A DNA stretch of 23,243 bases from an uncultured archaeon (GCA_964587725.1 CAZPLO010000020.1:1-23243); one strand, 5' to 3'. Numbered from the stretch's first letter, positions 12,928-13,590 are shown. Notes: generated from the letters alone by a model not told the origin. A program made the numbers and translations.

Positions 12928-12958
12928 GCACTACATGTGTTTAATCTTAGTATATTTT

Positions 12959-13020
12959 GTCGTGGTGCAACGAACACTAAAGTGTTCGTGCACACGAATT
13001 CCAATGGAATTCGTCGTGGT
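12959..13020. mobile_element. Miniature double-hairpin insertion flanked by 8-bp direct repeats (putative non-autonomous element)
   Basis: GTCGTGGT at 12959-12966 and 13013-13020. Between them: ACGAACACT-AA-AGTGTTCGT (12970-12989) and ACGAATTCCA-A-TGGAATTCGT (12994-13014). Confidence 0.6.
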
Positions 13021-13261
13021 CGTAGTCTAGTAGCTTGACTTTTTTCTGTTTTTCGTTGATTTCGTATGTGAGAACGAATGATTTGTCTATGTGGACTCTT
13101 CTTGCCCCGTGTTTGTCGCCGCGCAGGGGTTTGAAGTGATATGGTTTCTCGAGGATTTCCTCTATTTTCTTGTGGATTATCCTTAACTGTTTTTTGTTTT
13201 TCTTGGAGAGCTTTTTGAATTTCCTGTGCAACTGTTCGGAAACCTCCAGGGAGTAGTCCAT
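12977..13261 (-). CDS. RelE/YafQ-family toxin with C-terminus altered by an insertion (ancestral stop likely 12947-12949)
   Basis: FKKLSKK...PYHFKPLRGDKHGARRVHIDKSFVLTYEI...LLDYDH. The in-frame HHDKIY* tail lies downstream of the current TAG. Confidence 0.85.
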   Translation of the reverse strand: MDYSLEVSEQLHRKFKKLSKKNKKQLRIIHKKIEEILEKPYHFKPLRGDKHGARRVHIDKSFVLTYEINEKQKKVKLLDYDHDEFHWNSCARTL

Positions 13262-13264
13262 GTT

Positions 13265-13486
13265 CTACAAACCGTATTCCCTGGAGAAGTCGCTGACTTG
13301 GATGAAGTTTCCTTTCCTGATTCTGTTCAGTTTCTCCAGATACTCTCTTTTAGCCTCGGGCTCCTCTTCAAGCTGGGCTTTCATGAACAGGTTGACCTGC
13401 TTGCTCATGCTAATGCCGTGAGATTTACAGAAACTGGAAAACCGGTCGTATACGTTTTCGTCCACGTTAAATGTTTTCAACACCAT
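13265..13486 (-). CDS. RHH-type antitoxin upstream of RelE
   Basis: KTFNVDENVYDRFSSFCKSHGISMSKQVNLFM ribbon-helix-helix pattern; 3 nt from the toxin start. Confidence 0.75.
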   Translation of the reverse strand: MVLKTFNVDENVYDRFSSFCKSHGISMSKQVNLFMKAQLEEEPEAKREYLEKLNRIRKGNFIQVSDFSREYGL

Positions 13487-13494
13487 CACAAAAC

Positions 13495-13518
13495 ACCTTA
13501 TTTAACATTAAATAAGGT
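13495..13518. promoter_or_regulatory. Palindromic operator of the antitoxin-relE pair
   Basis: ACCTTATTTAA-CA-TTAAATAAGGT directly upstream of the antitoxin start. Confidence 0.65.
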
Positions 13519-13590
13519 TATTTAACTATTTAAGGTTGTCGTTTCGACCCCCCCCTTCGGGTGTCGTCTGCAGTTATCCCCTAAGCGCAT

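Follow-up and report, generated by a model that had tools for sequence, protein, structure and literature searches.

Why does a toxin gene of an uncultured archaeon end inside a pair of DNA hairpins, and where did these hairpins come from? The question is raised by a relBE-like cassette in the window, by which we mean the whole stretch of 23,243 nucleotides that was analysed. On the minus strand, a single frame reads ...LLDYDHD-EFHWNSCARTL*-CSLH-HDKIY*, and the original prediction had taken this to be the tail of a relE gene carrying a small in-frame double hairpin; frame and hairpins are indeed as it described them. We examined the toxin and its homologues, the structure and limits of the insert, its occurrence in related genomes and the enzymes that might move it, and compared it with the known families of short palindromic and single-stranded-DNA-borne elements.

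The predicted toxin ends within an insert

The toxin open reading frame (Table 1) matches TIGR02385 (RelE_StbE) over residues 6-82 with 35.8 bits, above the cut-off of 27.9, and TIGR00053 (YafQ) over residues 3-82 with 61.6 bits, which is below the cut-off of that model; the Pfam ParE-like, YafQ and ParE models also match, every one of them below cut-off. In a structure search, HP0892 and YafQ were the top matches, both weak (E about 0.04-0.07). The antitoxin frame belongs to the same operon and stops 3 nt ahead of the toxin start codon. Its match to the RelB_DinJ profile is weak and under the cut-off (E 0.0046), and its C-terminus is similar to that of the antitoxin next to a related toxin of another genome (locus L150, below). 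By the curated RelE_StbE cut-off and the adjoining upstream antitoxin frame, the gene is classed on sequence grounds as a type II toxin of the RelE/StbE-YafQ type.

The whole relBE-like cassette (window 12940-13560) is an AT-rich island, with a GC content of 0.43-0.46 against 0.55-0.60 in the flanks, and is flanked by genes for a DegT-type aminotransferase and a phosphodiesterase-like protein. No match to the cassette was found in G001, the other genome of the genus. Since it is AT-rich and absent from that genome, the cassette looks like horizontally acquired accessory DNA.

Table 1. Features of the toxin locus and of its insert, in window coordinates.
Feature	Position	Strand	Remarks
Antitoxin gene, 74 aa, intact	13265-13489	minus	ORF; weak RelB_DinJ match
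RelE/YafQ-type toxin ORF	12977..13261	minus	94 aa; residues 1-82 native
In-frame TAG ending the toxin ORF	12977-12979	minus	inside the loop of hairpin 2
Displaced original toxin end	12947..12964	minus	codons H-D-K-I-Y and stop, same frame, now untranslated
Displaced original stop TAA	12947-12949	minus	
Double-hairpin element, covariance-model match	12965..13018	minus	54 nt, CAC at both ends; 80.2 bits, E 2e-19
Hairpin 1, 9-bp stem, 3-nt loop	12994..13014	minus	ACGAA...TTCGT, fold
Central 4-nt linker GTGC	12990..12993	minus	complementary to 5' CAC and 3' GCAC
Hairpin 2, 8-bp stem, 4-nt loop	12970..12989	minus	ACGAA...TTCGT, fold
8-nt repeat GTCGTGGT	12959-12966 and 13013-13020	plus	copies 54 nt apart
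Empty allele junction			...GAC joined straight to CACCACGAC

The alignments to the RelE_StbE and YafQ profiles run to residue 82 in the window's toxin and to residue 87 in an intact homologue (P0002). After H82, the conserved HHDxxY tail of the toxin subfamily is replaced in the window's protein, as the prediction of a rewritten C-terminus had stated, and the last 12 of its 94 residues, DEFHWNSCARTL, are translated out of the insert. The weak alignment to HP0892 and YafQ (E about 0.04), which served only to locate the C-terminal His, puts the second His of HHD opposite the His in the GSHSEL tail; YafQ requires this His and the aromatic residue four positions on for its activity, and RelE requires its C-terminal Tyr. 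From the conservation of the lost tail we infer that the toxin is inactivated or weakened by the insert, with the antitoxin gene left intact. The replacement tail opens with H-D-E-F, and some toxin function could persist.

The two hairpins are perfect and abut each other, with stems of 8-10 bp, and both can be extended past a single bulged base, as had been noticed at the outset. In hairpin 1, the CAC at 13016-13018 pairs with the central GTG around a bulged G at 13015, and in hairpin 2, GTGC pairs with GCAC around a bulged T at 12969. The ACGAA...TTCGT hairpin pattern was found twice in the window for an expectation of 0.28, and at least twice in 3 of 100 shuffles. The fold goes beyond what shuffled sequences reach: 141 nt folded as RNA gave -32.4 kcal/mol (z = -3.99, 0/200 shuffles equal), and 60 nt folded as single-stranded DNA gave -19.1 kcal/mol on either strand (z = -6.6 and -6.2, 0/200 shuffles equal). 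The repeat GTCGTGGT does lie on both sides of the hairpins at the predicted spacing, and it has 5 matches across the window against 1.09 expected.

Empty sites define an insert of 51 nucleotides

A search of a large protein collection gave 392 candidates, 390 of which were relatives at E <= 0.001. Among the 120 relatives listed of these 390, the 94-residue form is represented by the window's own protein alone, and most have 87 residues and cover 85-96% of the query. An HHDxxY end with at most two further residues was present in all 18 homologues retrieved, the nearest of which (83-84% protein identity) end in LLDYDHHDKIY. As all 18 homologues share this end, the break must lie between the two His codons. 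The HH pair is restored only by removing 51 nt, and the net insert set by the empty-site homologues is therefore 51 nt (17 codons), not the 54 nt originally proposed, the removal of which leaves the protein one His short.

The 51-nt insert has four equivalent registers, from 12968-13018 to 12965-13015, shifted along the common CAC. Its boundaries are fixed only to within 3 nt, with which a 2-3-nt target duplication stays compatible; such a duplication and a common target word look alike at the junctions. The 8-bp flanking duplication of the original prediction turned out not to be a target-site duplication, since the junctions share 2-3 nt only and CAC is the one part of the 8-nt repeat common to both. 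The other five bases are the 5' consensus of the family described below (CAC-R-ACGAA), coincidentally similar to the His-Asp codons of the target: many family copies start with CAC-G-ACGAA, which resembles the His-Asp codons past the insertion point. The 51 nt of the window can also be read as two complete bulged hairpins of 28 and 23 nt, with the following CAC being that of the target.

That the hairpins were inserted is borne out by related genomes, in which empty sites exist. The locus L008 of a relative, with 83% DNA identity, reads ...DYDHHDKIY* without the insert, a further 6-7 relE loci in relatives are empty as well, and directly behind the insert, the window agrees with the empty site of L009 at 21 of 21 nt. 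A lack of other copies and of empty-site homologues, or close homologues sharing the EFHWNSCARTL tail, had been named as evidence against an insertion; what we found are homologues ending in HHDxxY and a family of copies.

In contigs from four DNA runs (word depths of 4.7 to 82), which belong to a single study that may be the source of the window's DNA, only the filled allele was present and no joint was seen, it being understood that contigs hide minority alleles and that neither rare variants nor expression can be read from them; no RNA run was listed for the site. One metagenome run contained a 195-nt contig that matches window 12964-12999, i.e., hairpin 2 and the linker only, between unrelated flanks, and this is probably another copy within the same community.

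A family of structured repeats in one archaeal order

The window's genome comprises 1.56 Mb in 48 contigs and is 92% complete. Exact-pattern and BLAST searches of it gave no second copy, and a covariance model, alone among the searches, found one, diverged and near a gene start (C31:8658-8714, 44 bits). The route to this model was a comparison of a 661-nt query with 60 relatives, in which short matches confined to the insert appeared in three other genomes; these have the same two-hairpin layout and different stems in which pairing is kept. The model was built from nine copies, eight of them distinct. Over the nine copies, standard pairs occupy 94.6% of the cells, compared with 26-44% in slid controls, four stem pairs have changed on both sides, and the observed pairing and covariation score was reached by none of 500 shuffles, with the reservation that the structure for this test was drawn from the window copy, which tilts the test somewhat in favour of that structure.

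The model matches 28 of the 49 genomes of the order at E <= 0.01. The family is restricted to this one order of Altiarchaeota: a scan of 61 genomes of the phylum at E <= 0.001 gave matches in 26 of the 49 genomes within the order and in none of the 12 outside it. Matches per genome reach 29 in G022, 27 in G027 and 19 in G032 when both strands are counted, so that real copy numbers lie below these counts; G001, G026 and G042 have none. We collected 85 non-overlapping copies in 73 loci, a biased sample, as the loci were picked for containing matches; in the main, the copies are found between genes, clustered in tandem and in both orientations.

Other collections were searched with patterns. A 17-mer scan of genome contigs yielded at least four true copies among six loci retained, all four already in our set and all belonging to Candidatus Altiarchaeota archaeon or uncultured archaeon, and nearly all the remaining matches listed were due to chance. 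In metagenome contigs, the relE-junction pattern had no match and the general CAC-type pattern matched one contig (L255); the latter pattern had no match in viral contigs. When nine copy-bearing loci were compared with Rfam at E <= 1, just tRNA and one sub-threshold overlap with that tRNA were returned.

Insertions recur at the same codons

Copies are also found in three further relE-type genes, again at the H^HD position, namely L150 in G011 and the paralogues L174 and L149 in G027, the last of which is broken additionally. All four relE inserts add exactly 51 nt, in frame. A stop codon is brought along by three of the four copies; the insert in L150 is without one, and its 110-residue protein rejoins an HDEVY tail. 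The L174 toxin (35% protein identity to that of the window) matches ParE_toxin above the cut-off, and the L150 toxin (52%) has no Pfam match at E <= 0.01. At the DNA level, the elements of L150, L174 and L149 are 83-84% identical to that of the window, against 56-64% over the 240 nt upstream, and in the G027 pair the element is identical at 54 of 54 positions, with 82% in the upstream DNA. Because the element is widely conserved across the family, these identities alone do not date the insertions.

A second recurrent target is a K-Y^H site in IS1595-type transposase genes, six of which, in three genomes, are filled and two empty. One empty gene is intact (G047:C4, 249 aa, ...ERFYKYHGIHK), the other lies at G047:C80, and one empty gene shares its genome with two filled ones. 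The inserts at G047:C36 and C87 add a net 48 nt, in frame and without a stop; the insert at G032:C133 adds 52 nt and shifts the frame, and the filled copies at G045:C249, G045:C252 and G032:C167 are also out of frame. Hairpin 2 is wholly different between the G047 and the G032 versions. Finally, a 55-nt copy breaks an IS5-type transposase gene of G019 into two frames. In each of these insertions, the terminal word of the element is the same, or nearly the same, as the adjoining target word; for relE the target word is CAC, and the transposases have TAC or TAT. Every interrupted gene that could be named, toxin or transposase, is dispensable or selfish, as can be expected because purifying selection would leave such copies.

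A guide-like word between the hairpins

On the better-scoring strand, the family is laid out from 5' to 3' as a trinucleotide, a bulged purine, hairpin 1, a 4-nt linker, hairpin 2, a bulged pyrimidine, a G and a repeat of the 5' trinucleotide, this terminal word being CAC, TAC, AAC, CGC or, more rarely, another. The five base pairs at the hairpin foot are mostly ACGAA/TTCGT, and distal stems and loops are free to vary. A simple parser handled 84 of the 85 copies and split 45 of them cleanly, which left 43 unique copies after two duplicates were taken out. The 5' trinucleotide is fully complementary to the first three bases of the linker in 40 of the 43 (shuffles: mean 9.8, maximum 19), and the linker is fully complementary to the 3' 4-mer in 28 (shuffles: mean 7.1, maximum 15). 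The two terminal trinucleotides are identical in 32 of these parsed copies, and 5' word, linker and 3' word co-vary over at least eight variants or word pairs. Judged by its complementarity, the linker is able to pair with either end of the element and is a guide-like word.

The surroundings of the copies are themselves repetitive. In G022 and G027 (L148, L179, L180, L184, L201 and L026), the double hairpin is nested in an outer inverted repeat, AGGTTTTCCAC ... GTGGAAAACCT, and in many cases another double hairpin, unlike the first, comes after it, the whole forming a larger composite unit. The flanks of the copies in G016 (L256-L265) and G027 (L275-L284) consist of other short repeated modules in a BIME-like mosaic, with a flanking module of about 90 nt occurring 12 times in G016 and several modules of 35-60 nt occurring at many sites in G027. 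For the TAC, CGC and AAC subfamilies, no further filled and empty pairs were found, the flanks being other repeated modules. L147, L177, L181, L186, L198, L163 and others have a T-rich context, ...TTTCTTTTGGGGGTGAAG / element / CTTTTCTTT...AAAGAAAAGGGG, and ARAGORN placed a tRNA beside two of nine such loci (tRNA-Lys in L147 and tRNA-Ala in L178); such a context either marks a hot spot or is itself one more module. In the low-GC genome G032 (L190, L192, L193, L195, L199, L200 and L203-L205), the stems are A/T-rich and lie between further A/T hairpins. Several of the G032 copies are at contig ends, and these repeats may break the assembly.

Y1 transposase genes and the element

The element had been predicted to be a non-autonomous, MITE- or REP-like unit. 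A dispersed, structured and protein-less family is in keeping with this; the transposase side of the prediction fared less well, and neither Y1_Tnp (PF01797) nor any HUH transposase was detected in the window's 92%-complete genome. In the order, Y1 matches occur in 18 of the 49 genomes, with no correspondence between Y1 genes and the element: the two are found together in 11 genomes, the element alone in 17 and Y1 alone in 7, and 14 genomes are without either. An HUH/IS200 transposase with matching ends had been suggested, and no intact Y1 locus of the order has the element at its ends. Across 26 further Y1 loci there was one clear model match (E 1.3e-5), beside a degenerate fragment in L229, and the sole other match at E <= 0.1, in L239, is marginal (E 0.011, 17 bits).

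In L229 (G031:C8), an IS200-type tnpA pseudogene with stops and frameshifts (1501-1735) is preceded, at a distance of about 200 nt, by a weak copy (1254-1306, 27 bits). At the tnpA-tnpB element L216 of G022 and the tnpA locus L217 of G027, the model found nothing at E <= 1; L216 (G022:C94, 284-1887) is a complete IS605-type element encoding a TnpA of 132 aa and a TnpB of 430 aa, and its ends are unrelated to the double hairpin. L218 (G027:C230, 1322-1905) is an intergenic region with five or six copies, on the minus strand to the left and on the plus strand to the right, and between these inverted clusters lies a 36-residue remnant of a Y1 transposase (E 2.3e-4). A RAYT gene and its REPs have the same arrangement, but the gene in L218 is decayed and the case is a single one. 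We take it as no more than a lead.

Origin of the insert

We consider it probable that the 51 nt are a REP/BIME/MITE-like archaeal insertion element which truncates a RelE/YafQ-type toxin, and which was moved as folded single-stranded DNA with its linker as a guide and is now stranded. The copy sits between the two His codons of a toxin end reading ...DYDH^HDKIY; translation enters the element and halts at the TAG in the loop of hairpin 2, keeping residues 1-82 and losing the conserved tail, and a neutral or favourable effect of toxin loss would explain why the insertion persists. The element would move, or once have moved, as folded single-stranded DNA, with the central linker pairing as a guide both with the terminal trinucleotide and with the identical trinucleotide of the target, a logic similar to the pairing of guide and cleavage site in IS200/IS605. 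Such pairing would lead to site-specific insertion beside CAC, or beside TAC, AAC and CGC in other subfamilies, and to seamless excision. The mobilising enzyme is probably missing from the window's genome, and the copy studied here is most likely a stranded fossil. More tentatively, and with considerable doubt, the family may represent a minimal guide-directed single-stranded-DNA transposon, in which one 4-nt guide reads both ends and the target and the enzyme is not a recognisable Y1 of the IS200 type.

The identical 2-3 nt at both ends of 32 of the 43 copies could also be the target-site duplication (CA or CAC, 2-3 bp) of a classical MITE moved by a DDE transposase, with the ACGAA/TTCGT feet as its very short TIRs. 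The outer feet of the two hairpins do form a 5-nt inverted repeat, and the genomes concerned also contain DDE transposase genes of the IS1595 and IS5 types. However, a duplication should be arbitrary in sequence, and in 40 of the 43 copies the linker inside the element is complementary to its terminal word; the stems vary with pairing kept, which points to the recognition of a structure and not of the sequence of double-stranded ends; full-length elements ending in this way were not seen, and the DDE genes that were found are targets of the element and not its carriers. We therefore regard a DDE-driven MITE as unlikely. Strong hairpins that close an operon on its 3' side, with the stop codon of a convergent gene some 40 nt away, would suit a native, immobile 3' module of the relE lineage, which might terminate transcription or stabilise the mRNA, or a fold-back duplication of local origin, but we give such an origin next to no credence, as the same architecture recurs in many unrelated contexts in 28 of the 49 genomes, the nearest relE homologues are without the insert and the interrupted tail resumes exactly after it.

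The exact, in-frame 51 nt of all four relE inserts, the stop-free copy of L150 with its rejoined HDEVY tail and the recurrence of same-site insertions in separate genes would also be expected of an intron-like element cut from the mRNA, by the archaeal splicing endonuclease or another activity, the spliced mRNA then encoding the full toxin. In one register, by a pairing that recurs under two equivalent scan settings, the copies of the window and L150 form a 4-bp helix (CGAC/GUUG) between two CAC bulges. This helix, however, is without an outer helix (h1 = 0) and has only 2 bp on its inner side, a 4/4 helix is possible in no register of L174 or of the IS1595 copy, the majority of copies are extragenic, in tandem clusters and on either strand, the IS1595 and IS5 copies that add 52 nt shift the frame, and no Rfam family, ribozymes included, matched at E <= 1. 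Four genic copies were scanned for BHB introns in all four registers, with two cut positions and in both mirror geometries, and the 4/4 central helix was never found combined with an outer helix. Splicing thus seems very improbable to us. So, to the same degree, does a programmed reversible switch in which frequent precise excision and re-insertion toggle the toxin within the population: seamless excision is expected from a peel-and-paste mechanism and the displaced tail and stop codon are still intact, but no candidate enzyme was found in the genome, which holds two copies only, and neither an empty-allele contig nor a joint was seen in the four runs, whose contigs hide minority alleles.

Integron attC sites were also compared by eye and set aside: some copies, though none of the CAC or TAC types, have an R'-box-like 3' GTTG..., and what the copies do is break up genes, not bound cassettes.

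Comparison with known elements

The passages on REPs in PMC3733652 describe them as short, protein-less palindromes in which the base of the hairpin is conserved and the distal stem covaries, and which occur as doublets, in tandem clusters, in mosaics with other hairpin modules and occasionally within genes. The element is like REP, BIME and REPIN sequences in its conserved hairpin base, covarying stems, clusters, mosaics and some genic copies, and unlike them in having an archaeal and not a bacterial host. A BIME consists of two inverted copies of one REP, whereas the element always consists of two different hairpins in tandem; REPs have a GTAG or CGTC tag, in place of which the element has a variable terminal word that matches its internal linker; and REPs often exceed 100 copies per genome, compared with 2 in the window's genome and at most 29 model matches (both strands) elsewhere. 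Bacterial REP, BIME and REPIN sequences are mobilised by RAYT, a Y1 HUH transposase, the single-copy gene of which is flanked by REPs, whereas only two degenerate Y1 fragments (L218 and L229) lie beside copies of the element.

With IS200/IS605, the element shares a hairpin at each end with a single extrahelical base, the lack of long inverted repeats and site-specific insertion. In IS608, an internal guide is complementary to the cleavage sites at the ends, and the element similarly has a short internal word complementary to its own ends; PATEs are gene-less derivatives of IS200/IS605. The element differs from all of these in that a single central word serves both ends and in its length of only about 48-57 nt, and also in that no full-length copy with matching ends was found in these genomes and Y1 genes do not co-occur with it.

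Rickettsia palindromic elements are described in PMC3733652 as palindromic selfish DNA within coding genes that may be in frame and translated. In the same way, the L150 copy and the G047 copies in IS1595 genes keep the frame and contain no stop. However, Rickettsia palindromic elements are longer and unrelated in sequence, and, by contrast, three of the four relE copies carry a stop and the known hosts of the element are dispensable genes. Archaeal BHB introns, known from tRNA, rRNA and cbf5 mRNA, are also short inserts in archaeal genes, as the element is, in frame, in relE, but their defining motif, two 3-nt bulges around a 4-bp helix with further helices outside and the cuts placed in the bulges, is missing from it. 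The element thus lacks defining features of each of the classes considered, the REPs or BIMEs, the IS200/IS605-derived, PATE-like elements, the TIR-type MITEs and the BHB introns.

To our knowledge, REP-like structured repeats have hardly been characterised in archaea. A literature search found no published description of the element; the supplements of PMC11602168 might list such elements, and the census in that article gives Ca. Altiarchaeum hamiconexum the top MITE density of the archaea surveyed.

The element is a source of annotation errors, such as odd C-termini and split genes, in genomes of Altiarchaeota. For the relE gene itself, the result is modest, truncation by selfish DNA being a common fate of toxin-antitoxin genes. 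More interesting are the clean covariation between the internal 4-mer and the ends of the element, the repeated hits at the same codon and the lack of a recognisable transposase partner. The family makes it testable how tiny palindromes pick their targets and what moves them. If the guide-directed reading is true, a changed guide would be enough to reprogram target choice and to explain the CAC, TAC, AAC and CGC subfamilies; the family would then do naturally in archaea what has been engineered in the retargeting of IS608, and could point to a new enzyme for cutting and joining DNA at short words that can be programmed.
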